Of a stretch of 64,000 bases of DNA, positions 12,877 to 61,021 are shown piece by piece (within the stretch, counting starts at the first letter, position 1; the number at the start of each line of letters is the position of its first letter). Where the stretch lies: IMG/VR virus record IMGVR_UViG_3300020047_004915, one strand, 5' to 3'. Source of the DNA: an uncultured virus (IMG/VR IMGVR_UViG_3300020047_004915). Lineage: Duplodnaviria > Heunggongvirae > Uroviricota > Caudoviricetes > Schitoviridae. The notes beneath the pieces are model-generated. The model made no database searches. It worked only from the letters and a program-made list of their open reading frames with translations, and was not told where the DNA came from. The translations under genes were made by a program, and so were the position numbers.

Positions 12877-12880
12877 CCCT

Positions 12881-12917: not shown

Positions 12918-12944
12918 TTCATGTTTGGTGGTCTTTCCGGTGTG

Positions 12945-12964
12945 GCCTTTCAGGCATGAGGTGG
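12945..12964 (+). promoter_or_regulatory. Candidate virion-RNAP hairpin promoter E4
   Basis: GCCT-TTC-AGGC followed by ATGAGGTGG. Confidence 0.75.
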
Positions 12965-13003
12965 AATGTCTGGGCAATTTCGCCCCTTAAGGAGGACACC
13001 ATC

Positions 13004-13915: not shown

Positions 13916-14047
13916 TGTGGAGTGGAAGATCATCTATCGTGCTTGGATGCGTGAAGCACAGGATGCATTGAATGGAAATACAGACTCCATGGAAATGGGG
14001 TTCTGTATCTCATGTGCATTGAACATCTGGATGAAACTGGAGTGTGT

Positions 14048-14410
14048 ATGAAACCCTTCAAGTTGATTGTGGCTGGTGGCAGGGACTTCTCTAATACAGA
14101 GTTGTTCCTTCAAACCATGCAGCAAGTAGAGCAAGACCTGTCTGAATACTCAGTGTCCTTGGTCAGTGGTATGGCTAAGGGTGCTGACATGATGGCTTGG
14201 CAATTTGCCAGACACGAAGGTATCACCTGTCATCACTTTCCTGCGAACTGGAACAAGTATGGCAAGAGTGCTGGCTTCAGAAGGAATCAGGAGATGGCTG
14301 ATTTCAGTGATGGTTTGGTAGCCTTCTGGGATGGTAAATCCCACGGTACCAAGCACATGATTGACACGATGGCCAAGCAGAACAAGTGGATCATGGTAGT
14401 GAGGTACTGA
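14048..14410 (+). CDS. SLOG-superfamily protein (DUF2493/YspA-like)
   Basis: LIVAGGRDF, VSGMAKGAD, AGFRRNQEMA and FWDGKSHGT motifs. Confidence 0.88.
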   Translation: MKPFKLIVAGGRDFSNTELFLQTMQQVEQDLSEYSVSLVSGMAKGADMMAWQFARHEGITCHHFPANWNKYGKSAGFRRNQEMADFSDGLVAFWDGKSHGTKHMIDTMAKQNKWIMVVRY

Positions 14411-38600: not shown

Positions 38601-38928
38601 GACTTCTATCAGTACCCAACTTAAGATGTCTGCCCAAATCTACATACAGCAAGTTGGCAGCAAGCGGAGTAGAGGACTGTGGTACAAAGAACTTGAAACC
38701 AATGAAATCATCTACGCTTCCAGATGCTTTGGAAACATAGTAAGGTGCAGTAGTAGCATCCAAGGTAACAGTAGCAACACCAACACCGTCAGTAGTGAAG
38801 GTAACAGGGGCAGGAACTACATACTCAGGATCAACAGTACCATCCGGGTAAGTGGCAACTACTTTAAAGGAAGTATGGGGAATGACTTCACCATCTAACC
38901 CAGTAAGTGTAAAAACTACAGTAGTCAT
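35635..38928 (-). CDS. Tail fibre/tailspike (receptor-binding protein)
   Basis: 1097 aa; N-terminal adaptor, Ala-rich coiled segment, EYFSVPS...LY motif seen in tailspike N-termini, beta-rich C-terminus. Confidence 0.8.
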   Translation of the reverse strand: MTTVVFTLTGLDGEVIPHTSFKVVATYPDGTVDPEYVVPAPVTFTTDGVGVATVTLDATTAPYYVSKASGSVDDFIGFKFFVPQSSTPLAANLLYVDLGRHLKLGTDRSLYALIETKVGMMQVLNTAQAIQTAALATASEIAGSVVDVEELQAAIDIVHAAVIVDKAATLVYKDAAESSAEAALVSEEAAGVQAATAAIHAATAESAADAALASGNIFETTVLGMAGTASNEYFSVPSAEAEGFLDLYQHLGSATFVKSYPSLQGIYSLVSPIAVRNQNPEPVFTDSVLPTMRSGTAGFVTIVNSYLVALGATKGVWNASGTASLNTMVKIPLPAGSIGKQVIMGCYLLSDATPTTVSQFSNVSEVLVPGTMTEVIEEVSSGVYLVLVYGEVPATATNMVIGAVLPSRDSSHLVTGVTYAIQDRVMNRYNFAYDVLGSVSPHTPETVNTALLAAVARITDLENNPEVKSYEEVTASVNLLDLTAIQDGKYISSGTGQIVSGTDWGCSDYIPVTAGEQYVISGARGRQGVSFFTSASPSAVVAGSYNGTATLPLVVTAPVTATHMVIGLYKGSATVTTIDDCIDLQVEPGNTPTVYVPYGETLRLVRAESITPSIVDRIPISTKSLLVLNGTGVSTKSYIEVVREGRTIKRTFTPWPDTSISACSVFEFDADLVDGVEHKDCTDDMAPYRFGSTIATVGAGHGYAMTLLTLTAHGKTVDDIGSIYSVSGTQHVIVGVPSVNTLYMTARSGNGNTPIGTFTYVSGGTNTSNFTVSVAASSAQWYPPFKNRNIQCFVDGEEITATTGSMNYKHSVTFVESYDLMAKPDIVAWVEANGAGGYTVPEADACASVSMAYVFDTDGNCTVHSDFLVLKNDLNLQDIMFLQAARMTSGVSGDVVYYIPKTLPLTHEGTAYDYNLKDDAPESGWSARLKFLPSLIEPTGLSPDRVVMLNDTVGFAIGYLPEDAADPSVRRTNTTVKSLELSTSSSKVYLSAIDKGTYSPDVGQHWKITGYRNILINSVNRTCAYPVRTNSGTYFYVDWHVSGIDRVVLPTDLHGKSFTVVEKSSNVDVLSTSATSSLVFDVDVSSVQYGYAILKFV

Positions 38929-45574: not shown

Positions 45575-45577
45575 CAC

Positions 45578-45603
45578 AAGAGCGTCTCTCGACGCTCTTA
45601 CGA
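45578..45603 (+). promoter_or_regulatory. Hairpin M5 (candidate middle promoter)
   Basis: GCGTC-TCTC-GACGC-TCTTACGA. Confidence 0.5.
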
Positions 45604-45620
45604 TTAAAACGAGGAGTCCT

Positions 45621-46367
45621 ATGACACAGTTCAACGACAACCTACTACTCATTGTAGGCAAATCATCTCATGGTAAATCAGCATCACTCATGGGTTTGGA
45701 GAACCCAGAAGGTGTTATGTATCTTAACTGCGAATCGGGTAAAAAATTACCCTTCCCTGCCAAGTTTATGAAAGGCAGAGACGGTAAGCCGGGATTGGTA
45801 ATCACTGACCCGTTACAGGTTCTGGAAGCATTTGAAGCTGCCGAATCCATGCCCCATATTCATACCATTGTGGTAGATACACTAACGTATCTGCTTGATA
45901 TGTATGAATCACTCTATGTACTTAACGCCTCCAATGGGATGAAGGCATGGGGAGACTTTGCACAGTACTTCAAGAACCTCATGCAACAGTACGTAGCTAA
46001 GTCCACCAAGAATGTAGTGTTCTTGGCTCACACCTTGGAAACCATGAATGAATCAGAGATGATCATGGAAACCAAGGTACCTGTGAAGGGTTCACTGAAG
46101 AACAATGGAATTGAGTCATTCTATAGCATTGTAATCGCAGCAAAGCGTGTGCCTCTCAAAGCACTTAAAGATTACAAGAATGATCTCTTGATTATCACTC
46201 CAGCCGAAGAAGCTCTTGGCTTCAAGTATGTCTATCAAACACAGGTGACTAAGGACACTGTACATGAGAGACTACGTGGGCCAATGGGTCTGTTCACACA
46301 GCAAGAAACCTTCATTGACAACAATCTGCAACTTGTACTCAACCGGCTTCATCAATACTACGCATAA
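45621..46367 (+). CDS. Sak4-like AAA ATPase (N4 gp44-like)
   Basis: GKSSHGKS, YLNCESGKKLPF, IVVDT, VPVKGSLKNNGIES. Confidence 0.88.
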   Translation: MTQFNDNLLLIVGKSSHGKSASLMGLENPEGVMYLNCESGKKLPFPAKFMKGRDGKPGLVITDPLQVLEAFEAAESMPHIHTIVVDTLTYLLDMYESLYVLNASNGMKAWGDFAQYFKNLMQQYVAKSTKNVVFLAHTLETMNESEMIMETKVPVKGSLKNNGIESFYSIVIAAKRVPLKALKDYKNDLLIITPAEEALGFKYVYQTQVTKDTVHERLRGPMGLFTQQETFIDNNLQLVLNRLHQYYA

Positions 46368-46399
46368 GCGTAGCACTCACAACTAAAGAGGAAACTCAC

Positions 46400-47137
46400 A
46401 TGTCTTTTCTGAAAAACCTGCAATCTGACTCCAGCATCCAAGATGAAAAAGATAACTTGGGTGGTGGTGGTACCATCTTTGAATCTGGCCTGTACCCACT
46501 CAAGATTACCTTGGCATATCTCACTACCTCTCAAGGTGGTGCAGTAGCCTTGAACATCCGTGGCAAGACCGAAGATGATAAGGAACTGCGTCAACAGTTC
46601 TGGATGACCTCAGGTACAGCCAAGGGCTGTAAGAACTACTACGAAGACAAGAACGGTGAAAAGAAGTATCTCCCAGGATTCTTGATGGCTAACAGCTTGT
46701 TCCTGTTGGCTACAGGCAAGGAAATCTCTGAACAGGATACTGAACAAAAGGTAGTGAACCTATGGTCTTCTGATGCCAAGGCAGAGGTACCTACCAAGGT
46801 AGATATGTTCATGGATTTGATTGGCAAGGAAATCATTGCCGGTGTACTGAAACAAACCGTGGATAAGACAACCAAGGATGCTACAGGGGCTTACGTAGCT
46901 ACAGGTGAAACCAAGGAAGAGAATGAAGTAGATAAGTTCTTCCGTGCAGAAGACCGTATGACTACTGCTGAGATTCGTGCCAAAGCAGAAAGTGCAGTCT
47001 TCATTGACCAATGGGAAACCAAGTGGGCTGGTAAGGTCAAAAACAAGGCTAAAGGTGCTGGTGAAGGCGGAGCTAAGGCTGGTGCACCAAAGCCTGCAGG
47101 AGCCTCTACGAAGCCATCCAGCAGCCTCTTTGGTTAA
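46400..47137 (+). CDS. Single-stranded DNA-binding protein (N4 gp45-like)
   Basis: YLPGF, ENEVDKFF, Gly/Ala-rich tail ending SLFG as in N4 SSB-like late activators. Confidence 0.9.
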   Translation: MSFLKNLQSDSSIQDEKDNLGGGGTIFESGLYPLKITLAYLTTSQGGAVALNIRGKTEDDKELRQQFWMTSGTAKGCKNYYEDKNGEKKYLPGFLMANSLFLLATGKEISEQDTEQKVVNLWSSDAKAEVPTKVDMFMDLIGKEIIAGVLKQTVDKTTKDATGAYVATGETKEENEVDKFFRAEDRMTTAEIRAKAESAVFIDQWETKWAGKVKNKAKGAGEGGAKAGAPKPAGASTKPSSSLFG

Positions 47138-47154
47138 TACCCATCCCAACACAT

Positions 47155-47175
47155 AGCCGCTGCAAAGCGGCTTTC
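47155..47175 (+). terminator. Terminator after the SSB gene
   Basis: AGCCGCT-GCAA-AGCGGCT-TTC. Confidence 0.65.
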
Positions 47176-47193
47176 TATTGCCCGGAGAAACGT

Positions 47194-47505
47194 ATGACAG
47201 ATGAACCAGAAATTACCTTCGTATCTGCAGATGATCCCAACTGTGTGAGTATGCTCATAGGTAGCATCCTTGAATGGCACTCTCATGGTATGGACACTAT
47301 CCAACATCTGTTGGATGTTCCTGAGAATACTGAGACTGTGATCATCATGGAGGGTGTAGAACATCCTATGAATCTTAGTGGAGATATGCGTAAAGCATTT
47401 ATTGCTGGAGTTGTTGCAGCATCCTCTGCATTTGTGGAACTTCCTTTTGTTCCATCAAGTAAAGAGGACAGTACTGATGAATCACAAGTCAACACTCTTC
47501 AATAG
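47194..47505 (+). CDS. Hypothetical protein
   Basis: GGAG RBS; 103 aa. Confidence 0.75.
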   Translation: MTDEPEITFVSADDPNCVSMLIGSILEWHSHGMDTIQHLLDVPENTETVIIMEGVEHPMNLSGDMRKAFIAGVVAASSAFVELPFVPSSKEDSTDESQVNTLQ

Positions 47506-48082
47506 TGGTTTACGTGTAGTGGGGTTTGATCCTTCGCTACGTAACTGGGGCATTGCTTCAGGAATGTACTATCCCAATGAAGATGGGAGACTTTCAATAG
47601 AATTATTGGAAGTTACACAACCAGTACTTCCCAAAAGCAAGCAAGTAAGGCAGAATAGCCTCGACTTGTTAGCAGCAGCAGCTTTAGCAAAAGCAGCATT
47701 CGATAGTATCATTACTGCCGATGCTGTATTTGTTGAAGTACCCGTAGGAAGCCAAAGTTCTAGGGCAATGGCTTCATACGGAATATGTGTTGGTATACTA
47801 GGTGCACTAAGATCAGGAGGAACTCCTTTCTTTGAACTTAGTCCAGAAGAAGTAAAAAAAGCATCAGTAGGTATTAAGACTGCCACTAAAGCTCAGATGA
47901 TTGAGTGGGCAGTAGCAAAACATCCTGAAGCCAACTGGCCAACACATAAGAAGAATGGAGAAATCCATGTTACTGAATCTTCTGCAGAACACATGGCAGA
48001 TGCTATTGCTACCATATATGCAGGGTTATCCTGTCAACCGTTCCAACAAATGCTGGCCCTAATTAAAAGGTCAGCAACTTAA
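47477..48082 (+). CDS. RuvC-like Holliday junction resolvase
   Basis: VGFDPSLRNWG, FVEVPVGSQ, EHMADAIA. Confidence 0.88.
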   Translation: MNHKSTLFNSGLRVVGFDPSLRNWGIASGMYYPNEDGRLSIELLEVTQPVLPKSKQVRQNSLDLLAAAALAKAAFDSIITADAVFVEVPVGSQSSRAMASYGICVGILGALRSGGTPFFELSPEEVKKASVGIKTATKAQMIEWAVAKHPEANWPTHKKNGEIHVTESSAEHMADAIATIYAGLSCQPFQQMLALIKRSAT

Positions 48083-48095
48083 CCGAGGAAGTACC

Positions 48096-48371
48096 ATGAA
48101 AATTGCATTGAATCAAAGTGAAGTTGTTGCTGCTATCCGTGGCTATGTTGCAGCCCAAGGTATCGACATGGCCGGTAAGCAACTGGATGTTACCTTTACC
48201 TCTGGTCGTAAGGGTAATGGTTTGACTGCTGATCTGGACATCTACACCCAAGCTGAAGCTTCTGCTGTTGTGGTTGAAGATGTTGTAGTGGAAGACGTTG
48301 CTGAAGTCCCTGCTCCTGAAGCTCCGGTAACAGTTGCTACGACTGAGGAAACCGGCAGTCTGTTTGGTTAA
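48096..48371 (+). CDS. Small acidic hypothetical protein ending SLFG
   Basis: GAGGA RBS; FTSGRKGNGLTADLDI. Confidence 0.8.
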   Translation: MKIALNQSEVVAAIRGYVAAQGIDMAGKQLDVTFTSGRKGNGLTADLDIYTQAEASAVVVEDVVVEDVAEVPAPEAPVTVATTEETGSLFG

Positions 48372-48598: not shown

Positions 48599-51500
48599 TT
48601 ACAAACCCAACATCCTTAGAGTTGCAATGTTATCCACAACCCCAGGATATTCCAAAGCCCCTGCATGTAACAAACCACCCCCATAAGAATCCCCAAACAC
48701 ACCAGAATCATAGATCATCGGCAGAGCATCAATGTACTGATTCAACAGCAATGTAGTCAGTGAACTCAAAGGATGATTACGAGCAAGATACAAAATCACC
48801 TTCTGAATCCGAATCAAGTACTTCGTGAACATCACAAAACCCATGTCATTAGCCCACTGCAACTTACGATGTGAAGGTATGTCATAGTTGATGAATGCAT
48901 CTGAAGCAGCTTGAATAGCAGCATCATGTGTCATGGGATTACGCGCCTTATTCGTCATGTGTTGATACAGAGCATACCTAGCTATAAAGTCACTATGCTG
49001 AGTCACAGAGCTAAGTGTTTGATACATCCAACCATCTCTAGACATGTACAAGAACTTAGCAACTTTCTGTACATTCTTGTGCTTATCCAAGTGCTTGTTC
49101 ACCTTAGCAGTCAATCCACTCTTGTATGAGTAAGCATCTTCATCTGAAGCCACATCCTCAACAATAGTCGGCATCAAACCTTCCTCAATCAGCTTGCTCA
49201 CTGGGTTACGTGCAATATCATTTTCCAGCAAAGCAATCTGTCTCCGTGTTTCAGCCTCATCCCTTACATATCCAACTTCCAGTTGATGCTTCAAGTAAGC
49301 CAACTTATCTGCATCACGATGATAAGCACGAGCGCCTAGTATTGCAGTTCTCCAGTACTTCCAGATTTCAAACGGAGTCAACCCATACGCTATCAATTCA
49401 AAGTAGTTACTGGTGATGTTATTAAGCATAACGATCCCAGTCTTCATCACAATGATATCCTTGGTTTCAGCAACAATCTCTTCCCATACATCACCTACAT
49501 TATTCAACCAGCGTTGTGCACGCTCTCTCGCAATTGTTCTATCACCTTCATGGCTTGTGCGTGCAAACATGATTGAGAAAACATCAGTGATGATCTTTGC
49601 ATACATATTCCCTTCAGCAGCATTACGGAATACAGCATCAGTAGCACTGCTCTTACGATAACCGAAGAGCAAGTCCAGAGTGTCATAACGAACCAACATA
49701 CCTTGTGGCCCCCAAACCTTGAGAATGGCTTCACGAGTTTCCTTAGGCAACTTCAAGGCAATCTCTCTAATCTCAGGATCAGAACTCAAAGGACTCACAC
49801 GTACATATGACCTAGCATCTCCTGCTTTGTTGGCATGGTAGAAGTCATACAGTTCACGTACTACCTTCTCATTTAGTTCAAGGCTGCTGTCACTATCAAA
49901 CACATTACTAGCAAGAGTACCCAACAACTGACTGAAGTTATTGTTACGCTCTTGCACACTATCCTTGATATGCCCCGGAAGCACTTGCTTGTAATCAATA
50001 ATCTTCATCTGATCATTGATAGTAGGTCTAGCCCATAGTTGGGTACCCACTGTAGGATCGAAACCAGTGTAAGCAGTACTCAGTAATTGGTTTACATACG
50101 GTTCCCTTAGCATAACCTGGTTATCAATACCTACTTGCTCAATCTGACCAGACACAGTGTTAGGGTTAATACGCTTCATCAGCTTACCTACATAACGTGT
50201 AGACAAACCAGAGTAGGAGAACACACCACTTAACCAAGGACGCATACCGCTACCTTTGATGGTGTAGATACGTGCATCACTGCTGTTGTCATATCTATCC
50301 AGTTCCACAGGTGCAGACTTAGAGTACCCAAGCTGTCTAAGTCGCTTATCTTCCTGCATTCCAGCAACCATAACCTCTACGTGTGGGTTTAGCACTTCAG
50401 GTACAAATCCCTTAGGTACAAGGTAAGTTTTACCCTTGAACATCTTCTTGGTAGCTTCCTCAATGTAGTGTTTATGAGCTAACAGTGTCATATGCACACC
50501 ATTACCCTTATCACCACGCGAGAGTTGTTCACGCATGATGTTAGCCACCATCTCCCGTTGTTGGTCAGCAACATTACCTGACAAGATAGCTTGCAGGGTA
50601 GCCAACTTATCAATCATAGGTATGGCTTGAGTAGTAATAGCACTAGGCACCTTACCTGACTTCTCTGTACCAGCAAGAGTAGAAATCTGGATTGCATTAC
50701 CCAAGACATGTTGAGTCTTGTCTTCCTCTGTCATCAAGCTATGCCCCAAAGCCTTGGCAGTAGTAATGTAGAAGTTAGCCAGTCCAGGAATACCCTTCAC
50801 TTTCAAACCATTCAGTGATTGCTCAATCTTGGTAATCTCAGCCTTGAGGTAAGACTCATCAGAGAACAGTTTCTCAATCTCTTCCAGAGACATGGTATCC
50901 AGCAACATGAAGGCACCTGACCGAATCAGATACTTGGTCATGGCTTCACTTTCTTTCTTGGAGAAAGAACGCTTACCAAAGGAAGCAAGCACAGTATTGC
51001 TAACCGTAGTCATAATACCTTTACGCTGATTCTCCAAACGTTTGCTAATACGACCGAGTTTATGCAATGGAAGAGTGGCTTCAGTAGCTCCCCGCATCTC
51101 ATTCAACACACCCATAGCCAAGCCATACTGATGCTGGCCAGCCTTGCTATAAACCTTGCGAGTAGCCTCAGCCATTGCTTCTACTTGATCTTGTGCAGTG
51201 ACTCTCACAGCAGTTCCCAAAGCCCCTACAAAGGCATTCTTGCTCTTGGTGAATACTCTGCTATTCCCAAACTTGTACAGGGCTTGCTTGCCCTTGTTGG
51301 TGAGGTATTCAGTACCTGCTTCAATACGATCACCAAGCTTGTCCGGTTGCATGAGACGATGACGCTTCTTCATCTCAATACCCACCAAAGTCTTCAGCAG
51401 AGATTCCATCTTCACATCTGCTTTCTGACCAGAGTAAGTCTTGGTAGCACGACTCTCAAAAGCATTGAGCACCTTGTTAAACCATGACAGCAGACGTTCT

Positions 51501-54500
51501 GTAAATGTTGTAGGCACAGGAGTAGCTTCACGATTCTGAGAGCCATACTGGAATAGTGCATTGACCTCTTCTACACCCAAAACCATGGCAGCAAAGCGAG
51601 CAATGTGATTGGACTTACCATCAACACCATTCTCTACTTTGAACAGGAAAGCATGGAGAGCTTCAGCACGCTGCTGTTCAGTCTTAGTTGCAGCAGCAAA
51701 GTTAGGCAACATGGCTTGTGCATTGGGATACTTCTTGTATGCCTCATTGAACATCCGAGTGAGTTGGGTGTATGCAATGGTGGTATGACCTTCATTGTCT
51801 TCGATGGCAGCACGTACAGTAGCTTCAATCTGTTCTGCAACAAACTGCTCTTGCTCACTCACCACGAAACCAGAGGCAATGATGTCAGACACAAAGGGGA
51901 ATGATTGATCATTCACAGCCTTGGCATATACATCTAAAGGAGACAATGCAGAGCTATCAGCAACTGCCTTGGCAAGCGTACCAAACGGGCCATGAAGGGT
52001 GTTCACGATACCATTCAATATACCTTTGAGGTGTGCTTCAAAAGACGCCTGCAAAGTGCCTTTAGATAAACCATCAAAGATTTCTACTGTAGTGTACTTA
52101 CGTACCGTAGCAGCAGGAGAATGACTACGAATAATCGTGTCAGATACTGCCTTGGTAGTATTGGTTTCCTGTTCTGCAATCAAGCCAGACACATTGTTGA
52201 TCAATGCGCCAAAGACTGTTTGAAGTTTATCTTGGGTTAATCCAAGAGCTTTAAACACTGTCCGTACAAAGGCTTTGAATAGTCCTTCAGTGGTGTAAGC
52301 AATACCCTGAAGGTCAATCATGAACTCTTTATTGGTAATACCATAAGTGATAAATTCATCCAGATTCTGTATCAAGTCTGGTGATCCAAACACCCTAGAG
52401 TACTTGGCTTCAAGGGTTACTTTAGCCAATTCATACATCTTGGTAATTTCAGCAATAGCAGCTTTTTGTACGTCTGTTTGGTTCTTGGAAACCAACGCAG
52501 CAGACAATACAGAGTGAACCAGTTCATGCAGAATAGTCTCTGGAGTAACAGAACTATTCTTGTACATGTGACCACGTACATAGAGAGTGGCCTTACCTTC
52601 ATCCAAAACAAATTGAGCAAACTCGTTGCCAGTCATAACCTTTTCAGGTACATCACTACGTTTTACATCTTCAGTAAGATACACCACCTTAAAGTCAGGA
52701 ATAAGCTTCATGATGCTATTCAATAGCATATCGAAGTAAGGAATCTTGGCTTCAGAAGTAATAGCTTTCAGTGCTTGTACCAAAGAATCTTTGGTTACAT
52801 TAGGCTGTGAAAGTGCAGCCACTAACCCAGGGAATTTAGCAGGTGCAGTAGTCAATTCTCCCCACGCAGCAGCGTTAGCTTTAGCGGTCTGAAGTTCACT
52901 GACAATACGTTCAAAAGTAATAATCTGAGCTGTTACATCAATCCCTGCCAAAGCAGTCTTATCTCCCTTCTCTGAAGCAATAATAGCTTCAATCACAGCA
53001 AGAATTGTTGCATCTGTTACTGGATTCAACAGAGTCTTCAATGCTTTGATAGCACCTGCACGTTCAGATTTACCAAAGTAGGTGTAGGACGCCTTAGCCT
53101 CTTTAAGTAGGATACTTAAGTGGGGAGTTAATCCTACAGCAGTATTAGGTGGTGAGCTTTGCGTAGTAGGTGTGAGTACATTCACCAATACATTCTTGAC
53201 AAAGACACCCAAACCTTTAGCACTGCTTTCCCTATTACCAGCAATATTCAAGGTAGCGGGTTTGTGTTCTTCAAGGAAAGCTTTTACTTGTGCAGCAGCT
53301 ACACTCCCTTTCTTGGTAGAAACCACAAGGTAAGGTTTGCCGTGTTTCTTGGCAAGACGTACTGTCGAATCAGAACCTGGAGACTTCTCAGCTACATTGA
53401 AAATGATAGTAGCATCACTGTTCACTACGTTATCTTCTGTACGTCCCGGATAACTAGGAAGTGCATGTTCGGTTACACCGAAGTCTTTAAGAGATGCATC
53501 ATCTCCAGTTTCTGTTCTATACCCTTTAGGTGCAGTACCTCCAGTTTGAAGCCCAAGTGCTTTACCTGCTTCCAATCCACCTCGATCACCGCCAGTCTGT
53601 CCACCGCTGATGATCTTAGTTACTCCATAAGGAGTGCCTGTGTTAGTGGTACTAGCTTTCTTGGTTTGAAGTAATGGTTTGGTAGCTAAGATAGCTTGCT
53701 GTTGTTCAGGTGTGAATGCCTTATCTACAGTCATCAGCTTAGCTGAAGCAGCTTGACGCATAGCATCTGTAACTTCCAGAGCACCACCTTCATAAGCATA
53801 TTGACTCAGGTAAGCCATGTTAGCCATGAAGCCAAGTTTCTGGGTATCTGCCTGTGCTGCATAACCGTACAGAGCAGTCATACTCTCTACAATCTGAGCA
53901 TAGGCATCTTTGCTGTTAGCCTTTCTGCTAGGATCAGGTTGCTTAAGATGTGCAGCCAGCATACTGATATAAGCATCAGCCTCTTCCTTGGTCATGGAAG
54001 CCACAACAACAGGAATAGCTTGGATAGTACGCATCAAACCATTGGCTACTTCACGTACAGGAGAGTATTCAAGCAAAGCATTCCAAAGGTTTGTATTCAA
54101 ACGATGTGCTTGATCAACAATCCTACCCACACCAGTTAAATCAGCATCGTGGATATTGAGAGCTTCAGTACCTTTCACTGCACCATGGGAGGTTCTGCTA
54201 TCCAGAGAGTGAGTAGGCATAGCCACCATACTGACACTAGGAGAGTCATCCAGATTCTCATAGCCATAGGTAGTCATGGTAGACAGTGAAGTACCATCTT
54301 CCAATTGGAATGGTTTGAAACGAAGTACTGATCTATATCCCGGACGACGTGATTCCCTACGATTACGCTTACCCATCATAGGAATACGAGCATCAGCACC
54401 ATTGTCACTTTCCTTGGAGAACTGAGTAGCTACAGTAGGCAACATCCCTTTGATACGCTCACGGATAGCTTCCTCTTGTTCAAAGGTAATACTGTCACCA

Positions 54501-57500
54501 ATCATATCTCTGAGGTACTGGTACGTAGCATTGTAGATATTGAATGCCAAGTTACTCCCTGTAGTGATGGCATCCTTTACCTTAATGACCTTTTGAAACT
54601 TGTCATTAAAAGTAGCCTCAATAGCATCTCCCAAAGTATCTTGAAAAACAGAAGCCATAGCATTCAATTGCTTGTCTGAGAACTCAAACTCTACCCAGAA
54701 CTTGGTTCTGTCTTCTTCATAGGCTTTGGTTGTGGTGTCAATCTTCAGCCCTTCAGGAAGCAAACCATTGATATGAGTTACCAATGTCTGCATGGCTTGA
54801 GCACGTTCACCTGCTTCAGCATTAGCCACATCTTCCATCTTGTCATACATACCACTGAGGAATTCATTGAACATCCCAGTGACCAGCGTCTCCATACCAG
54901 AACCAAAGTGGAACTGAGTAGTAGATGTCTTTACGATCTTACGTGCAGCAGAAGTAGCCGTACCATCTTCCTTGATCAATGGTTTGGTGAAGTAGTACAC
55001 ATGGTTGAGTTGCTGTTTGAACGCATCACCAGCAGCCTTCATACGTCTTGTGAGGTGTTCTACCATCCCTTTAGCGTTATCTTCATACAAGTCATTACGA
55101 CCCTCTACACCACGCCATACGTTGTAATCCTTGTGCTGTTCTTGAGGATTCAAACCAAAGAAACCACCTCGCTCAAGGAATGCAGGAGTGCCATAAGTAC
55201 CCCATAGAAGATTGGTCAGCATAGGCCCATTAGTAACACCATCAGCTTCAGCAATGAGGTGTACAGTGAAACTATCAAGGTCTGTGCGTTGAGCATGAAG
55301 CATGTTTGCCAAGGCAATCAGACCCTGTAAACCATGGAGTCTAGTCTTTGTCTTGGCAACAGCATTCACAATGCTACGTTGCTCAGCATCAGTGAGATCA
55401 GCATCAGAGTAGATACGATCATAGATAGCTTCTACAGCAGCACTGAATACAGGATTGGTAATGGAATACACACCATCCTTAACAGTCAAACCAAGTGCTT
55501 TAGTGACATCATTCAAGGCTGCTTCATGACTCTTCTTGTCAATATCAATATCCAGAGCCAAAGCTACAGCAATCAACAAAGCATTCACTTCTTCAGTGTT
55601 GTTTCTGTCGATAGTGGTCTGCCACTCTTTACGAGTCATCAGGAAACGTGCACCAGCCTTGTCTGCCTGAGGATTGAAGATTGTCTGTTCAATACCAGCA
55701 CGATTCTGACTCCAAGGAACATTCTTCAGAAAGAAAGGAACACTAAAGTCATTCTTCAAAGTCTTGTTAATGAAGTCTTTCATACCAAACCAGCTACGTT
55801 CAAGACCTTCATTAACAGCTTGAATAGCGAGTACCTTAGTCTTCTGGGTACGCTTGTTGTTACCATCAACAATAACCTTACCCATCATTTCCAAAACATA
55901 TTCAGAATCCATACCATCAAGCACTACGAAACCTTCTTCATAGGCAAAATTCTCAATCTTGTTGCTCTCATTGAGAGTATTCAGTAATTCACTAGGAGAA
56001 TCCTGGAACTTACTACCAAGATCAGCAGAAGTGGTTTCAACAGGCTTTAAGGAAGGTTCCTTAACCTTCTCTTCCACACCCATCATCTTGGATACAATAC
56101 TTTGACTACCTTGACCAGACACAGCAATCATTCTGTTCTCAGTATCTGCATCAACCATCTTGCGTAGAATTTCATAGTCAATAGTTTCCTTCTTAGCTTT
56201 TTCTTCCAAAGTACCAACCATTACATTAGCAAAGCGAATGAAGTTCTCTCCAGATGCTTTAGCAGACTCAAAGCTCATGGTTTTGGTATGACCAGTTACT
56301 GCACCAATCTCAAACATCAGACGTAGGGCAATATCTCCCAATTGATTCTGCAACCGAGAATCCATGACTACTGGGGTATCTTTATTGGCTTTAACACCAA
56401 GAGACTCTACAACACGTTGTCCAAGATCATTAACCACAGCACCCCTACGTTCACCAATCAAAGAGAACTTCTTGTACTCTGCAGGAGACACTGGGAAGTC
56501 TTCCTGACGTTGAAGCAAAGCATTGATCTCTTTGGGGGTACGCCTGTACGTCATCCCACCTGCATTCTGAATGAAAGAGAACACAGCATAAGCAATAGCT
56601 GCTTTCACATTCTCTTCCAGTTCATAAGAGACAATTTTACCGTTCTCACGTACTGGAAGCATGAAGGATTCATACAAGTACTGGCTTTCAAACTTAGCAT
56701 CCTGCTTAACCAACAAACCATCAATCATAGGCATCCATTCAGTTACCTTACGCAACAGAATACCCAGAGCATGGTTCTGCTCAGGAGTACGATCCTTTTC
56801 CTTTATGAACTCATCAATAATGTTTGGAAAATCTCTCCATGTACTGAAAAAGTAGGGTACTGAAGCCAATGGTTTAGTAGTGGCACCCTTACCTTTGTTC
56901 TGAGTGAACTTACCAGACAGAAAACTTACTCCCCTACTTAAGGAGTACAGAACACCCGAACCACTATAATGTTCCTCTTCTCTGTACAGAGATTCTAGTG
57001 CCAGAGTACGTTCTTCTCCTTTCAATCCTTTTACTCGTTCTGCCTTACTAGGTGCTTTAGGTGTTGGAGTAACATCCTCAATTACAGGGTCTTCAGTAAC
57101 TTCAATGGTAGGTTCAGTACGGATTTCCTGTGTATCCTCCTGCACAACATCATCTTCCAAACCATTGAAGTTTTGGAGTGCAGCCAACTTAGACTGTAAG
57201 TACGCAAACGTCTTAGGTGCTCTAGTATCAAGCTGTGCAAGTCCAGTACCTAAGCCAGCAGTAGGAACTGCTATCTTTGTATTAGGAGGTATCTTTGCAA
57301 ACGCAGCATCAATGGCTTTCACATTCTCTTCATACGTAGCGTCAGAAAAGAAAGCATTACTTTGCATAGAAGGAGCGCGCTTTGTGGGAATACCAATTGC
57401 ATTAGGCTCTCCCCGCATCTCTTTGGCTTGTCCACCAAAACCTTTACCAAGCAGATTGTCCCCAAACAAGAAGATAGTATCAGGTTCAGCCTGTACCATT

Positions 57501-60500
57501 GCCCGAGTAATACGATCTCGCTTCTCCACTTTAGGTTGAGTACTGCTAGTGGCTTCTACCGTATCTGTAGCAGGGGAGATAGGCATATCCTTACGTACAG
57601 GGATAGGAGAAACAGGCTCTGGAGTTACAGCCGGAGGAGTTTCTTCAGTCACTGTGTTATCTACACCGACTTTACGTGCTTGAAGATACAAAGCACTAAA
57701 AACAGTACGTGCTGTTGTTAGCTCTTTAAGGCTGGAATCTTTACCTTTAGGTAAGACAGTACTGAGTATTTGAGGGATTAACTTCTCAAGTGTATCCAAT
57801 GCATTGTTTCTATAATTAGGCTGTGTTCTTCCTGCCATTAAATAAGAAAGTGCATTAAGCATTGGCTGTGTAACGATAGTACCAATAGGTAAACCAACTT
57901 GAGTAGGTGTAGGCTTAGCCTCACTAACCTCAGGAGCCTGTTCTGCAGGGGTTTCAGCAACCACAGGTGCTTGGGTAGCCTCCACTTCAACAGGGGCTTG
58001 TTGGGCTTCATTGGGGCTTACAGAGGCATCCGTGGTAGCAGCCACAGGAGTTGCTACATCAAAGCCAACAGCAATCATGTCTGCTGTCTCAAGACTAGCT
58101 GCTTGGAGTGCATCAGCTTCAATCTCAATAGCAGCGATCAGCTTTCCAGAACCCTTGGATACACTGAAGCCACCATTGATACGGAGATCGGCATCAGACC
58201 ATTCGTCAGTAGTGCTTTCCCAAGTGTTGTCTGTCTTACGAATGATATTGATCTGCTTCTTAACAGAACCATCCAGACGAGCATTCAAGGCTTCACGACC
58301 AAGCTTGGCACGTTGCAATTGGTTTGCTGCCCACTTCTCAATACCACGTTGTAAAGCCATAGCATGAGTAAAGTTGTTCTCACGAATAGCTTGAGCAATA
58401 CCATTACGGTAGTCAGTGATACTCTTGTTCTTGTTTGCCTTGTCTCCGTTGATCACAGTACGAGTAACTGAAGCTACATCTTGCATAGCATTATAAGCTA
58501 CCCGTGCAGCACTGAACTTACGAAGGTAGTTACGCTCCTTTTCAGTAAGATCAACAGAAGTGTCATCAGCAATAGCCAATGCTTCTTCAGGTGTCATACT
58601 GCCCAGATCACCCATAGAACGAATAAGACTGATCTTCTCTGGAGATACAGTTGTCTTACCTTTGGCTTTCTCAGCCAAGATGAGTTCAGTCAATGTGTTA
58701 CGTTTTTCCCAAGCTACTGTAAGAGCATCTGAAGCTGCATTGTATGCAGCTTCTTTTTCAGGAGTACCGTCTTGGGCTTTCCATGCTGCATGGTTTTCTT
58801 CTTCTGCTTTGTCGTAGGCTTCAGTGACTGCTTTGAAGTCATCATAGCGAGCTTCTCCGGGTTTCACAGTGACACTAGGAGTTACTTGCTGGTCAGCATC
58901 GGAGTACCAATCCAAATTATTCTGTGCTTCAGTTTGGTCTGCATGTGCTTGTTGTAACCCATCCTCCAAGACTGCTTTAGCATCAGCATCTGTAGTAGCA
59001 GCAATAGTCTTCTCTAACTCACTGATCTGTGTGGTTATTTCTTGAAGACGCTCTTCAGCCTCTTTCCTTGCCTTAACATTGAGATCAACAACATCTTGAG
59101 ACGAACCTTTTTTCACTACCAATTCATCAGTAGTATTAGTGGTATCTTGAGTACCTTGAAGCTCAGCAATATAAGCTTCATAGGCATCCTTGACATTGGA
59201 TTCATTGATACTGGTTACAGTGTCTGTAATAGACTTAACCTTCTCAGGAAGCTCTGCCAATGTGTTTATAGCATTCTGTACGTCTGTGTCATCCATGGCT
59301 GTACGGAAGCCATTAAGCTTATCCAAGAGTCCTTGGATGTTTGTGGTGTCCTTACCTTTGGATGTCCTATCTGCAAGAATAGCTTGAGCATCAGATTCTG
59401 CTTTGTTCAGGTAATCAGGTACACCATCCATCTTCTTCAGAACATCAGGGGTAAGTCCCTTAGAGTTCAGAAGTTCTTCAGCAGCAGCAATACGAGACTG
59501 CATGTCATCATAGATTGCTTGAGCCTTGTTAGATGCTTCCATACGCACATCAGGAGCAGCATCCTTATTGGTGACAATACCATGAAGGATTTCCATCCCC
59601 TTATTGAGATCATAAGTCTTGGACGTAGGATCAAGGAATGCATCTGCATTACCAGAAAGAATGGCATCGTTCACTGCCTTACGTTCAGCAATCTTGGCTT
59701 TACGTTTAGCCACACTTGCCTCTGTATTGCCTGTGAGAGCAGCTACGGTAGCAAAGGGTGCAGTGATACCTCCAGAAGCCAAACCACCAATGGTAGCTCC
59801 CTTGTATATCTCAAGATCAGAGGCAGGCTTACCAAGCAACTGACCTTCAGCGTAGGTCTGGTAGCCCTCAGTACCTGCTTCACCAAGAGTGGATTTGAGT
59901 ACATTCTTTGTCACATCAAGGGTGCCTACTCCAGCACCCTTCAGCATAGACTTCAGGCCCAATTCCCCGGCTTCTTTGACAGCAGTGGTACCAGCAGCCT
60001 TACCCATCAAAGCCAAGGGTGTAACAGCCTTATTGAGGCCCATAGCACTAACAGACATCATAGTGCCTACGTACTCAGCACCTGCCAGACTGATAGCATC
60101 CCTAAGCATCTCAGCACGTTGTTCTTCAGGGGGGTACTCACCCCCATTCTTGGCTTTGTACGCTTGCATCCCTTTGTTGTAGTACTCACCTGCATACCCC
60201 AAGGTAGTTTCAGCAAGGGCAATCTTACCAATAAGACCGGCACTACCAAGTGCCAACATAGGCACCTGTTCACCCATATATTCCATGGTTGCTACAGGAT
60301 TGTCTGCACCAACTTTAACCGCATTGGCAATAAGATTACCTATGGATGCAGAAGCAGAGATTGCATGAGATATTTTATAAGCCAAAGGTGCAGTATCAGA
60401 AGACGTACCTTCAACACTGATACGCAAAGAAGCCAAGTCTGCTCTACCGCCATCAGCAAGTTCTTTATCAAAAACCTTACGTGCACCTTGCTCAACATAC

Positions 60501-61021
60501 ATGCTGTAGTCTTGGCTATCACCAATGGAACTTACAATGTTTTCAAGGTCTTGTACCTGTGCAAAGACATCCTTGGGAGACATCTTTCCATAGTCACTGT
60601 CATATTGCTTAGCATTGAAGTAAGCCACTTCTTCAGGAGTAGCTTTACCTGTATTGATCTTGTTGAAGACTTCATAATCTTTGGGTTGAAGCTTGTTAGT
60701 GTAACTTGCTGTACCCAAACTGAAAGGCATAGACCATGCATTACCACCCATACGCATAGCACTGGAACCGATGGAAGCTGCAAGGTTAGCTACATTTGCA
60801 GGCACACTATCTAACTCCAAACCAAACACATCAACAGTTGTTCCTTTGGCTTCAGCAAGACGTTGACGATGTTCCGCTGCCAATTGCTTGAGCATGTCTA
60901 CTTTTTCTTGAGTAGCTGCAAGCACTTCATCTGTTTTCGTTGGAGGACTATCTACGAAAGGGCCAAGCAAGCCAAGAGAAGTAGGGTCTTGAACAGAAGC
61001 AAACGGATCGTAAGTAGACAT
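48599..61021 (-). CDS. Virion-encapsidated RNA polymerase (N4 gp50-like) with accessory Macro-like, SLOG-like and HExxH segments
   Basis: 4140 aa; motif A EADGVTNGP, motif B RKIVK...FGSG, motif C NIHDA; C-terminal FINYDIPS; no Cys seen. Confidence 0.96.
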   Translation of the reverse strand: MSTYDPFASVQDPTSLGLLGPFVDSPPTKTDEVLAATQEKVDMLKQLAAEHRQRLAEAKGTTVDVFGLELDSVPANVANLAASIGSSAMRMGGNAWSMPFSLGTASYTNKLQPKDYEVFNKINTGKATPEEVAYFNAKQYDSDYGKMSPKDVFAQVQDLENIVSSIGDSQDYSMYVEQGARKVFDKELADGGRADLASLRISVEGTSSDTAPLAYKISHAISASASIGNLIANAVKVGADNPVATMEYMGEQVPMLALGSAGLIGKIALAETTLGYAGEYYNKGMQAYKAKNGGEYPPEEQRAEMLRDAISLAGAEYVGTMMSVSAMGLNKAVTPLALMGKAAGTTAVKEAGELGLKSMLKGAGVGTLDVTKNVLKSTLGEAGTEGYQTYAEGQLLGKPASDLEIYKGATIGGLASGGITAPFATVAALTGNTEASVAKRKAKIAERKAVNDAILSGNADAFLDPTSKTYDLNKGMEILHGIVTNKDAAPDVRMEASNKAQAIYDDMQSRIAAAEELLNSKGLTPDVLKKMDGVPDYLNKAESDAQAILADRTSKGKDTTNIQGLLDKLNGFRTAMDDTDVQNAINTLAELPEKVKSITDTVTSINESNVKDAYEAYIAELQGTQDTTNTTDELVVKKGSSQDVVDLNVKARKEAEERLQEITTQISELEKTIAATTDADAKAVLEDGLQQAHADQTEAQNNLDWYSDADQQVTPSVTVKPGEARYDDFKAVTEAYDKAEEENHAAWKAQDGTPEKEAAYNAASDALTVAWEKRNTLTELILAEKAKGKTTVSPEKISLIRSMGDLGSMTPEEALAIADDTSVDLTEKERNYLRKFSAARVAYNAMQDVASVTRTVINGDKANKNKSITDYRNGIAQAIRENNFTHAMALQRGIEKWAANQLQRAKLGREALNARLDGSVKKQINIIRKTDNTWESTTDEWSDADLRINGGFSVSKGSGKLIAAIEIEADALQAASLETADMIAVGFDVATPVAATTDASVSPNEAQQAPVEVEATQAPVVAETPAEQAPEVSEAKPTPTQVGLPIGTIVTQPMLNALSYLMAGRTQPNYRNNALDTLEKLIPQILSTVLPKGKDSSLKELTTARTVFSALYLQARKVGVDNTVTEETPPAVTPEPVSPIPVRKDMPISPATDTVEATSSTQPKVEKRDRITRAMVQAEPDTIFLFGDNLLGKGFGGQAKEMRGEPNAIGIPTKRAPSMQSNAFFSDATYEENVKAIDAAFAKIPPNTKIAVPTAGLGTGLAQLDTRAPKTFAYLQSKLAALQNFNGLEDDVVQEDTQEIRTEPTIEVTEDPVIEDVTPTPKAPSKAERVKGLKGEERTLALESLYREEEHYSGSGVLYSLSRGVSFLSGKFTQNKGKGATTKPLASVPYFFSTWRDFPNIIDEFIKEKDRTPEQNHALGILLRKVTEWMPMIDGLLVKQDAKFESQYLYESFMLPVRENGKIVSYELEENVKAAIAYAVFSFIQNAGGMTYRRTPKEINALLQRQEDFPVSPAEYKKFSLIGERRGAVVNDLGQRVVESLGVKANKDTPVVMDSRLQNQLGDIALRLMFEIGAVTGHTKTMSFESAKASGENFIRFANVMVGTLEEKAKKETIDYEILRKMVDADTENRMIAVSGQGSQSIVSKMMGVEEKVKEPSLKPVETTSADLGSKFQDSPSELLNTLNESNKIENFAYEEGFVVLDGMDSEYVLEMMGKVIVDGNNKRTQKTKVLAIQAVNEGLERSWFGMKDFINKTLKNDFSVPFFLKNVPWSQNRAGIEQTIFNPQADKAGARFLMTRKEWQTTIDRNNTEEVNALLIAVALALDIDIDKKSHEAALNDVTKALGLTVKDGVYSITNPVFSAAVEAIYDRIYSDADLTDAEQRSIVNAVAKTKTRLHGLQGLIALANMLHAQRTDLDSFTVHLIAEADGVTNGPMLTNLLWGTYGTPAFLERGGFFGLNPQEQHKDYNVWRGVEGRNDLYEDNAKGMVEHLTRRMKAAGDAFKQQLNHVYYFTKPLIKEDGTATSAARKIVKTSTTQFHFGSGMETLVTGMFNEFLSGMYDKMEDVANAEAGERAQAMQTLVTHINGLLPEGLKIDTTTKAYEEDRTKFWVEFEFSDKQLNAMASVFQDTLGDAIEATFNDKFQKVIKVKDAITTGSNLAFNIYNATYQYLRDMIGDSITFEQEEAIRERIKGMLPTVATQFSKESDNGADARIPMMGKRNRRESRRPGYRSVLRFKPFQLEDGTSLSTMTTYGYENLDDSPSVSMVAMPTHSLDSRTSHGAVKGTEALNIHDADLTGVGRIVDQAHRLNTNLWNALLEYSPVREVANGLMRTIQAIPVVVASMTKEEADAYISMLAAHLKQPDPSRKANSKDAYAQIVESMTALYGYAAQADTQKLGFMANMAYLSQYAYEGGALEVTDAMRQAASAKLMTVDKAFTPEQQQAILATKPLLQTKKASTTNTGTPYGVTKIISGGQTGGDRGGLEAGKALGLQTGGTAPKGYRTETGDDASLKDFGVTEHALPSYPGRTEDNVVNSDATIIFNVAEKSPGSDSTVRLAKKHGKPYLVVSTKKGSVAAAQVKAFLEEHKPATLNIAGNRESSAKGLGVFVKNVLVNVLTPTTQSSPPNTAVGLTPHLSILLKEAKASYTYFGKSERAGAIKALKTLLNPVTDATILAVIEAIIASEKGDKTALAGIDVTAQIITFERIVSELQTAKANAAAWGELTTAPAKFPGLVAALSQPNVTKDSLVQALKAITSEAKIPYFDMLLNSIMKLIPDFKVVYLTEDVKRSDVPEKVMTGNEFAQFVLDEGKATLYVRGHMYKNSSVTPETILHELVHSVLSAALVSKNQTDVQKAAIAEITKMYELAKVTLEAKYSRVFGSPDLIQNLDEFITYGITNKEFMIDLQGIAYTTEGLFKAFVRTVFKALGLTQDKLQTVFGALINNVSGLIAEQETNTTKAVSDTIIRSHSPAATVRKYTTVEIFDGLSKGTLQASFEAHLKGILNGIVNTLHGPFGTLAKAVADSSALSPLDVYAKAVNDQSFPFVSDIIASGFVVSEQEQFVAEQIEATVRAAIEDNEGHTTIAYTQLTRMFNEAYKKYPNAQAMLPNFAAATKTEQQRAEALHAFLFKVENGVDGKSNHIARFAAMVLGVEEVNALFQYGSQNREATPVPTTFTERLLSWFNKVLNAFESRATKTYSGQKADVKMESLLKTLVGIEMKKRHRLMQPDKLGDRIEAGTEYLTNKGKQALYKFGNSRVFTKSKNAFVGALGTAVRVTAQDQVEAMAEATRKVYSKAGQHQYGLAMGVLNEMRGATEATLPLHKLGRISKRLENQRKGIMTTVSNTVLASFGKRSFSKKESEAMTKYLIRSGAFMLLDTMSLEEIEKLFSDESYLKAEITKIEQSLNGLKVKGIPGLANFYITTAKALGHSLMTEEDKTQHVLGNAIQISTLAGTEKSGKVPSAITTQAIPMIDKLATLQAILSGNVADQQREMVANIMREQLSRGDKGNGVHMTLLAHKHYIEEATKKMFKGKTYLVPKGFVPEVLNPHVEVMVAGMQEDKRLRQLGYSKSAPVELDRYDNSSDARIYTIKGSGMRPWLSGVFSYSGLSTRYVGKLMKRINPNTVSGQIEQVGIDNQVMLREPYVNQLLSTAYTGFDPTVGTQLWARPTINDQMKIIDYKQVLPGHIKDSVQERNNNFSQLLGTLASNVFDSDSSLELNEKVVRELYDFYHANKAGDARSYVRVSPLSSDPEIREIALKLPKETREAILKVWGPQGMLVRYDTLDLLFGYRKSSATDAVFRNAAEGNMYAKIITDVFSIMFARTSHEGDRTIARERAQRWLNNVGDVWEEIVAETKDIIVMKTGIVMLNNITSNYFELIAYGLTPFEIWKYWRTAILGARAYHRDADKLAYLKHQLEVGYVRDEAETRRQIALLENDIARNPVSKLIEEGLMPTIVEDVASDEDAYSYKSGLTAKVNKHLDKHKNVQKVAKFLYMSRDGWMYQTLSSVTQHSDFIARYALYQHMTNKARNPMTHDAAIQAASDAFINYDIPSHRKLQWANDMGFVMFTKYLIRIQKVILYLARNHPLSSLTTLLLNQYIDALPMIYDSGVFGDSYGGGLLHAGALEYPGVVDNIATLRMLGL

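Follow-up and report, generated by a model that had tools for sequence, protein, structure and literature searches.

Optional DUF7831 and SLOG cassettes in the linkers of an N4-type virion RNA polymerase, with a possible role in ADP-ribose-directed counter-defence

What do two small accessory domains, set on either side of the catalytic core of a virion RNA polymerase (vRNAP), do for the phage that carries them? The question is raised by a gene of an uncultured virus of the family Schitoviridae (IMG/VR record IMGVR_UViG_3300020047_004915), of which one stretch of 64,000 nucleotides, called the window below and corresponding to most of an N4-like phage genome, was analysed. This gene (P0001; positions 48599 to 61021, minus strand), identified from the open reading frame (ORF) list, PHROG and tblastn, encodes a vRNAP of 4140 amino acids (aa). 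A preliminary description of the sequence had seen in this protein two compact domains within linkers, one Macro-like and one SLOG-like, which could be delivered with the DNA as decoys or erasers of ADP-ribose (ADPr) signals. Here, we report that neither domain is a universal part of vRNAPs and that both are optional cassettes, and we propose, with about even confidence, that they are linker cargo for catalytic ADPr-directed counter-defence at the time of injection.

A three-part polymerase with two optional cassettes

The vRNAP ORF matches the PHROG family 'virion RNA polymerase' (phrog_2206) with E = 0 over aa 168-4111 and, according to PHROG, the window also encodes a major head protein, a portal, a large terminase, two N4-like RNAPII subunits, a DNA polymerase, a primase and a protein that binds single-stranded DNA (SSB). 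Pfam detects exactly two accessory domains in the vRNAP, which flank the polymerase core. The first is DUF7831 (PF25176; aa 1167-1277, positions 57191 to 57523, minus strand; E 3e-38, 130.7 bits for a cut-off of 27). The second is cpYpsA (PF12694, 'circularly permutated YpsA SLOG family'; aa 2470-2615, positions 53177 to 53614, minus strand; E 7.1e-33, 113.8 bits for a cut-off of 26.2), aligned over profile positions 1-144 of 145. Both are embedded in linkers rich in Pro, Thr, Glu and Val, and their boundaries fall within a few residues of those drawn beforehand (aa 1165-1280 and 2465-2617). The second domain, previously called SLOG-like, proved to be a genuine member of a SLOG family, as it also matches the PDB entry 3imk ('putative molybdenum carrier protein'; E 4.2e-14, 133 residues), and its glycine-rich nucleotide loop ISGGQTG.DR is intact and identical to that of 3imk at aligned residues. 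Scanned alone against viral contigs, cpYpsA gave no relative; the isolated phages that have it encode it on its own, as a small gene annotated 'SLOG family protein' or 'molybdenum carrier' (12 of 12 records), whereas here it sits inside a polymerase linker.

The polymerase core (about aa 1305-2442; positions 53696 to 57109, minus strand) lies between the two domains, where its motifs had indeed been placed beforehand: two aspartates, D1927 (positions 55241-55243) and D2292 (54146-54148), are invariant across an alignment of eight vRNAPs and fall inside the span then claimed. By tblastn, the core matched 357 phage records out of the 50,697 searched, the top ones being annotated as vRNAP. Against the vRNAPs of isolated N4-like phages, the sole aligned block, of about 1138 aa, covers approximately aa 1304-2441 (the query started at vRNAP aa 1000 and was aligned from its positions 280/305 to 1435/1442), with about 28% identity and E values down to 7e-99. 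This block has the size of the N4 polymerase domain, which comprises residues 1008-2104 (PMC13492108), and close relatives of the window protein carry precomputed matches to the Pfam vRNAP domains PF21867 and PF21894. A phmmer search of aa 1301-2440 against PDB sequences (E <= 10) did not recover the N4 polymerase chain. Megablast of the window region under study gave no match to isolated phages.

The N-terminal domain (about aa 1-990; positions 58052 to 61021, minus strand) is 95-100% identical among nine close relatives and, by analogy with N4, would be the injection or membrane domain; in one relative (P0216), a stretch at aa ~632-760 is divergent (44-67% identity) within this otherwise conserved domain. 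The C-terminal domain (aa 2627-4140; positions 48602 to 53143, minus strand), 94-97% identical in eight relatives and matched by phrog_19273 and phrog_2206, would by the same analogy be the encapsidation domain. It contains a zincin-like module with an HExxH motif (aa 2832-2836; positions 52514 to 52528, minus strand; regular expression match), and an HExxH metallopeptidase module is also found downstream of the polymerase in the N4 vRNAP (PMC5512222). The surroundings of this motif (positions 52202-52546, aa 2826-2940) exist as two haplotypes among nine near-identical vRNAPs, either 87-100% or 42-62% identical to the window protein with flanks above 90%, which points to a mosaic allele of the peptidase-like module. 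The window vRNAP thus shows the three-part layout of N4, i.e. an N-terminal domain, a polymerase of about 1100 aa and a C-terminal domain with HExxH, in an N4-like genome context.

In N4, about four vRNAP copies per virion are injected; the protein is ejected ahead of the DNA, is tethered at the entry site and transcribes from single-stranded hairpin promoters (PMC4496689, PMC13492108). Two flexible linkers of the N4 vRNAP are unresolved in its structure, and its segmentation was proposed to ease passage through a tail channel of ~30 Å (PMC13492108). Homology with N4 therefore supports the earlier suggestion that the window vRNAP would enter the cell before phage gene expression.

Relatives of the vRNAP were collected with its conserved C-terminal 841 residues, which gave 158 metagenomic proteins; the counts below refer to the 120 of these that were listed, cassette carriage was scored from precomputed Pfam matches and BLAST of the cassettes, and joints were compared at the protein level. 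DUF7831 is present in 3 and cpYpsA in 5 of the 120 proteins. Nine vRNAPs (P0001 included) are 94-100% identical C-terminally for lengths of 3676 to 4176 aa, and their alignment consists of stretches of 90-100% identity broken by precise in-frame indel or replacement blocks with exact breakpoints, so that the possibility raised beforehand, that the domains are variable insertions, was borne out.

These blocks define two slots, which are the flexible linkers 1 and 2 of the N4 vRNAP. Slot A lies between an upstream joint peptide SPIPVR...TDTVEA (aa 1138-1157; positions 57551 to 57610, minus strand) and a downstream joint peptide with a conserved motif, FNGLEDDVVQEDTQEIRTEP (aa 1285-1304; positions 57110 to 57169, minus strand), which abut in empty alleles. 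Among the nine proteins, it holds DUF7831 in P0001 and P0002 and an unrelated cassette of ~230 aa in P0214 and P0215 (aa ~1056-1200, matching no Pfam or PHROG family), and is empty in five. All nine retain SPIPVR, as do P0003, P0223 and P0226 (~47% identical C-terminally), while the downstream motif is present in P0001, P0002, P0003, P0216, P0217, P0218 and P0226. Slot B is flanked by ...LLQTKK and ...TAVGLTP..LLKEAK, and its insert in the window (aa 2456-2626; positions 53144 to 53656, minus strand), delimited by comparison with empty and replaced alleles, is composed of short linkers and cpYpsA. It carries cpYpsA in P0001, P0215, P0217 and P0218, a DprA-like domain in P0002, P0214 and P0220, and nothing in P0216 and P0219, where LLQTKK is joined straight to a ...TAVV.PLD..LKAAK segment. 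The DprA-like domain matches phrog_768 ('DprA-like DNA recombination-mediator protein', E 2.7e-44) and, weakly, the Pfam DprA (0.017) and SLOG cluster (0.095) families; on the basis of these matches, it is classified as another SLOG-superfamily domain. The two slots assort independently among close relatives. A further optional insert of ~86 aa, called A0 (aa 1035-1120; positions 57662 to 57919, minus strand; delimited by alignment), lies in linker 1 upstream of slot A. It has no Pfam or PHROG match, is present in 5 of the 120 vRNAPs (P0001, P0218, P0226, P0228 and P0003) and is lacking in seven of the nine close relatives.

Comparison with more distant lineages indicates, from the protein sequences, that cassettes are exchanged among lineages and can change slot. 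P0003, which elsewhere has 36-45% identity to the window vRNAP, is 92% identical to it over 173 aa comprising the upstream linker and DUF7831; its downstream FNGLEDD joint is 91% identical to that of the window, and a second cassette (aa ~1354-1454), distantly related to the slot A cassette of P0214 and P0215, is placed between DUF7831 and this joint. The slot A cassettes of P0214/P0215 and of P0003 have a common motif, ..LAA.AK.GGI.., and are 34% identical between lineages. P0226 comes from a lineage with ~47% identity in the C-terminal region; its A0 insert nevertheless shares 85% identity with that of the window, and its slot A joints are 20 residues apart, i.e. the site is empty. The DprA-like cassette occupies linker 1 rather than linker 2 in P0226 (aa 1078-1264) and P0223 (aa 1096-1296); since it resides in linker 2 in the close relatives and in linker 1 in the ~47% lineage, the same module can fill either slot. 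Within the window, a search for direct DNA repeats flanking the cassettes gave only short, chance-level matches, and the GC contents of the cassettes (0.45 and 0.447) are not distinguishable from that of the gene (0.438 +/- 0.024).

DUF7831 as a candidate macrodomain

An AlphaFold2 model of DUF7831, built from a 62-sequence alignment, has a confidence score (pLDDT) of 92.1 and comprises four strands and five helices. When the model was compared with 48,161 chains in a structural scan made without Foldseek, macrodomain proteins came out at the top with low Z scores: a macrodomain-type protein is named in 19 of the best 50 rows, among them PARP14, C6orf130 (a putative macro domain protein of human origin) and macro domains from coronaviruses and alphaviruses, and five more of the 50 contain a macrodomain. 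Profile-profile alignment by hhalign of 64 diverse DUF7831 sequences with 11 sequences of AdfM, a phage macrodomain protein, gave a probability of 20% (P 0.0011, 93 columns) and paired N30 of DUF7831 with N23 of AdfM, IPTK55 with FPTK78, and GLGTG with LGCGNG. With a single AdfM sequence the scores were poor (P 0.034 and 0.11), in the same register; the control comparison, with the window cpYpsA, gave P 0.68.

The paired residues are those that the family keeps. N30, K55 and glycines are strictly invariant across the 64 diverse members, K78 is invariant in the AdfM set, and the window copy retains every residue that is invariant in the 62-sequence family alignment (to which it belongs). A lysine after a strand is catalytic in macrodomains of the TARG1/DarG type. 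DUF7831 also has two glycine loops, one after strand 23-30 (G35 and G38 invariant, G37 nearly so) and one after strand 90-94 (G97, G99 and G101 nearly invariant), and hhalign puts both on AdfM loops. Macrodomains are characterised by a GxG-type loop after the second core strand and by a second glycine loop (PMC9503650), and in AdfM (PhiKZ gp104) a conserved Asn, altered in the construct gp104 N23A, is needed for efficient removal of DarT2 ADPr from DNA (PMC13309987). We conclude, from sequence and model, that DUF7831 is probably a trimmed macrodomain of the DarG/TARG1 type. It is shorter than AdfM (~115 aa instead of ~160): in the alignment, ~30 residues that follow the first glycine loop and precede the PTK strand have no counterpart in DUF7831, nor has the last strand. 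It has no significant sequence or hidden Markov model (HMM) match to AdfM. DUF7831 has no PADLOC match and is set in a polymerase, not in a toxin-antitoxin pair, which makes it less likely to be a DarG without making it less likely to work like one.

Other assignments were considered and rejected. Dual-specificity phosphatases, which occupied the top Foldseek rows with TM scores of 0.25-0.3, were treated as noise. The glycine motif suggested a second SLOG-like domain; this fails on the hhalign comparison with the window cpYpsA (P 0.68), and no SLOG, LOG or DprA chain was among the best 50 rows of the structural scan. Searches of PDB sequences with phmmer and a profile returned chance matches only (ribosomal eS24, proteasome alpha-7), and the ESM Atlas offered only leads below 0.9, namely an 'A1S_2505 family phage non-structural protein' at 0.88 and, at 0.80, a cluster with Macro on 11% of its members.

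The family is widespread outside vRNAPs. At E <= 0.001, 2518 representative clusters were obtained, from phages, giant polyvalent proteins and bacterial contigs. Stand-alone proteins of 75 to 242 aa number 1172, and giant proteins of 2277 to 7245 aa number 93. Apart from the window protein, 14 of 92 giants are vRNAP-like; the 78 without vRNAP similarity bear helicase, methylase, Toprim, MutL_C, LPD38 and ART-PolyVal domains, which are typical of polyvalent proteins. In isolated phages (102 records, for the most part from phages that infect Alphaproteobacteria) DUF7831 is encoded on its own by a small gene, and none of the rows examined (60 best and 60 spread) is under a vRNAP annotation. A scan for related loci with the eight-vRNAP alignment keyed on the DUF7831 motifs and hence sampled DUF7831 loci rather than polymerases. 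In viral contigs, 39 of 80 loci have a frame of under 300 aa around the match and 21 have one of 2000 aa or longer, and vRNAP similarity was seen in one of the 41 frames of at least 300 aa. As for partners, the 93 giants associate DUF7831 with cpYpsA (18), NADAR (6) and an AlkB-like 2-oxoglutarate oxygenase (5), and 40 mid-size proteins associate it with SLOG domains (5, i.e. three cpYpsA, one YpsA and one DprA/YAcAr) and NADAR (1). Viral SLOG domains are mostly YpsA-like and fused to Macro and/or NADAR (PMC9503650), a picture that these partner statistics fit. Canonical Macro (PF01661) was sought in 17 large viral records with DUF7831 (80-347 kb) and found in none of them, as compared with 40-56% of medium and jumbo phages reported to have Macro (PMC9503650); this may reflect substitution or a difference in detection method.

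Some fusions involve nucleic-acid-facing partners (P0407, P0455, P0346, P0434, P0344 and P0342), namely a family B DNA polymerase with an RNase H-like exonuclease, PHP, sigma-70 regions 3/4 and an 'active DUF488-N3'. In the Caulobacter phage phiCbK, gp282 (locus L081, 3983-4432) is a stand-alone DUF7831 placed directly downstream of RIIA and RIIB; as the RII proteins are classic exclusion-countering genes, this setting could be a clue.

Possible functions of the linker cargo

We propose that the two domains are optional, horizontally shuffled cargo modules, inserted without loss of frame at the interdomain linkers of an N4-type vRNAP. Linker 1 connects the N-terminal domain to the polymerase domain, and linker 2 connects the latter to the C-terminal domain. 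As the carrier would be packaged and injected ahead of phage gene expression, the cargo would be present at the DNA entry site at time zero, located beside the entering DNA and arriving first. DUF7831 would act as a stripped-down macrodomain of the DarG/TARG1/AdfM type, with the catalytic-site Asn, the PTK lysine and both glycine-rich phosphate loops, and would hydrolyse ADPr from its substrate, most plausibly the ADP-ribosylated bases of single-stranded promoter or template DNA, or alternatively a related ADPr adduct. For its part, cpYpsA would act in this pathway too, by binding or cleaving a nucleotide derived from ADPr. The HExxH module of the vRNAP could release the cargo after injection, the peptidase of polyvalent proteins having been proposed to free cargo after delivery (PMC5512222).

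Several observations are consistent with the substrates and the counter-defence role that we infer. About four carriers per virion imply that the modules must act catalytically or locally and not as sponges, and the strict conservation of the Asn, Lys and glycines fits an enzyme. Erasure of ADPr on nucleic acid in cis is favoured over destruction of a soluble signal because of the AdfM-like relatives of DUF7831 and of its NADAR and AlkB-like partners. The nearest characterised relatives of DUF7831 remove ADPr from single-stranded DNA (ssDNA) bases, and the AlkB-like partners suggest base-damage reversal. NADAR reverses guanine ADP-ribosylation, and the orphan NADAR of T4-like phages neutralises DarTG1 (PMC11825919). 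Type II Thoeris restricts N4-like phages, which have a hotspot of anti-signalling genes adjoining their vRNAP gene (bioRxiv 10.64898/2026.06.04.730250).

A more specific version of this proposal appears doubtful when taken as a whole. Linkers 1 and 2 would be dedicated in-frame docking joints for preloaded effectors, marked by the peptides SPIPVR...TVEA and FNGLEDD... at slot A and LLQTKK and ...TAV at slot B; the effectors would be shuffled between lineages and between slots and may be released by the HExxH peptidase, and DUF7831 would be a minimal DarG-like glycohydrolase stripping ADPr from promoter and template ssDNA in cis before phage gene expression.

A number of results weigh against the cargo proposal. 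The Macro-like character that the preliminary description gave to the first domain is borne out in part, by the low-Z structural scan and the weak profile-profile alignment, and finds nothing in Pfam, PDB profile, PADLOC and Foldseek searches. Indeed, Foldseek of the DUF7831 model against the PDB gave a best E of 0.24; 62 members searched against Pfam at E <= 10 yielded no Macro, SLOG or recurrent family; and the PADLOC models, among which are macro and SLOG proteins of defence systems, matched none of 26 sequences at E <= 10, both window domains included, so that the idea of copies of host sensors has to be abandoned. The Macro assignment is thus statistically weak, and by sequence DUF7831 stands outside every Macro family. 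In the literature searched, DUF7831 is not named and nothing was found on the function of cpYpsA, the single use of this name being unrelated. In place of cpYpsA, some relatives have a DprA-like cassette, which could mean ssDNA handling and not ADPr chemistry, and the two domains, as they assort independently, need not act together. Finally, injection and copy number are taken by analogy from coliphage N4.

Among the other explanations, the one that survives best, itself unlikely, is that both domains degrade only soluble NAD-derived messengers (gcADPR, His-ADPR), so that Thoeris-type effectors are left untriggered. The defence background invoked in the preliminary description holds, type I ThsA sensing gcADPR by SLOG and type II ThsA sensing His-ADPR by Macro (bioRxiv 10.1101/2024.01.03.573942); the N4-like phages restricted by type II Thoeris are Pseudomonas phages (bioRxiv 10.64898/2026.06.04.730250), and for the Macro, NADAR and SLOG domains of phages, published opinion leans towards soluble ADPr derivatives (PMC9503650). 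However, in structure and profile DUF7831 is best matched by macrodomains of the DarG/AdfM type, which act on DNA adducts, the PADLOC ThsA models show no similarity to the domains, and some four membrane-tethered enzymes would be poorly suited to a diffusible, cell-wide signal; known anti-Thoeris proteins are expressed sponges (bioRxiv 10.1101/2024.01.03.573942).

Rather more improbable is a role as transcription or injection accessories without immune function, the domains holding ssDNA or nucleotides at the hairpin promoters or tuning ejection. The cassettes are set exactly at the polymerase boundaries, the slot B alternative belongs to a family named for ssDNA binding, and the N4 vRNAP requires single-stranded templates and host SSB (PMC4496689). 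Yet two of the nine near-identical vRNAPs are empty at both slots, which means that the domains are dispensable for polymerase function; moreover, DUF7831 resides mostly outside vRNAPs, as the 1172 stand-alone proteins, the 78 of 92 giants and the single vRNAP-like frame among 41 indicate, and its partners are NADAR, AlkB-like and SLOG domains.

We consider it very unlikely that the cassettes are neutral passengers of insertion-tolerant linkers, spread by recombination without benefit to the phage. Their presence or absence differs among near-identical phages and their GC lies within the range of the gene, as would be the case for such passengers, but the domains are intact with scores far above the family cut-offs, all family-invariant DUF7831 residues are kept in the window copy, and, across many unrelated elements, giant injected proteins bear members of the same small set of families. 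In addition, cassettes are 85-94% identical between lineages for carriers at 36-47%, which suggests recent selective sweeps. Finally, the decoy half of the preliminary description, i.e. catalytically dead binders sequestering ADPr signals or occupying host sensors, is scarcely credible, for although SLOG and Macro are non-catalytic sensors in Thoeris and the use of sponges such as Tad2 by phages is well established (bioRxiv 10.1101/2024.01.03.573942), about four vRNAPs per N4 virion are far too few for stoichiometric sequestration, the residues invariant across 64 DUF7831 members form an active-site pattern and neither domain resembles host sensor models.

Relation to known systems and genomic neighbourhood

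The general idea is largely published, through polyvalent proteins and the viral coupling of SLOG, Macro and NADAR, and the gain lies in the specifics. Polyvalent proteins are proteins of more than 2000 aa, delivered with the DNA, that string together conflict-related domains (PMC5512222); the 4140-aa vRNAP, with its polymerase, HExxH module, DUF7831 and SLOG, has this layout, its delivery being presumed by analogy with N4. Metallopeptidase, lysozyme, RNase and ART domains were reported on N4-type vRNAPs in 2017 (PMC5512222). SLOG, YpsA and NADAR are absent from the main text of that paper, where 'macro' occurs only within 'macromolecule'. Unlike in the fusions described there, the cargo here is located in two linkers flanking the polymerase and not on the C-terminal side, and it can be present, missing or exchanged for another module in vRNAPs that share 94-100% identity C-terminally.

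The AdfM and DarG2 macrodomains remove DarT2 ADPr from ssDNA, and AdfM is not carried as virion cargo: it is expressed on its own and imported into the phage nucleus (PMC13309987). The cpYpsA domain belongs to the same superfamily as the gcADPR-binding SLOG of type I ThsA and has no PADLOC ThsA match. In viral SLOG-Macro-NADAR networks, the domains co-occur, are often fused, are early or packaged and are predicted to process ADPr derivatives (PMC9503650); outside RNA-virus polyproteins they are described as 'typically standalone proteins', and the accessible text does not mention vRNAP. The Macro set of that study may already count DUF7831, and in the searched part of its supplement the phiCbK and phiM9 DUF7831 accessions were not found. 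The Tad1 and Tad2 anti-Thoeris sponges are likewise a phage countermeasure to NAD-derived signalling, but they are abundantly expressed oligomers that bind without turnover (bioRxiv 10.1101/2024.01.03.573942), whereas the domains studied here would be present in few copies and show active-site-like conservation. Among 20 of 151 papers retrieved on virion RNA polymerases or Schitoviridae in connection with SLOG, NADAR, macrodomains or counter-defence, no title or abstract described this arrangement. New elements are the swappable cargo logic of an N4-type polymerase, with two internal slots coinciding with flexible linkers; the finding, at population level, that near-identical proteins have, lack or replace cassettes and that these are exchanged across lineages and slots; and a first fold and active-site hypothesis for DUF7831, based on sequence and model.

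If the cargo is active, some N4-like phages would face DarTG, Thoeris and SIR2-type immunity with enzymes ready at DNA entry, and the vulnerable interval before early gene expression would be closed. Near-identical polymerases with, without or with other cargo constitute a natural experiment, with matched variants for each module. The two linkers also look like tolerant insertion sites, with a possible use for loading proteins into phage particles.

Between the primase (positions 43433-45574) and the vRNAP, the window (45549-48371) contains a Sak4/RecA-like gene, SSB, a RuvC-like gene (47378-48082) and small unassigned ORFs. In N4-like phages, the primase-to-vRNAP interval is an acquisition hotspot for anti-signalling proteins, with orthologues of the RuvC-domain protein 'Bes1' (bioRxiv 10.64898/2026.06.04.730250); the cargo-bearing polymerase would thus adjoin the anti-defence island of the phage. 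Elsewhere, an ORF of 1097 aa (positions 35635-38928, minus strand), located among lysis genes and small unassigned ORFs, has no PHROG match at E <= 1e-5 and may encode a tail or receptor-binding protein. In the early region, two small ORFs on the plus strand match the PHROG families 'toxin' (positions 12848-13267; phrog_6271, E 8.5e-08) and 'GTP-binding domain' (positions 14012-14410; phrog_289, E 3.9e-31).

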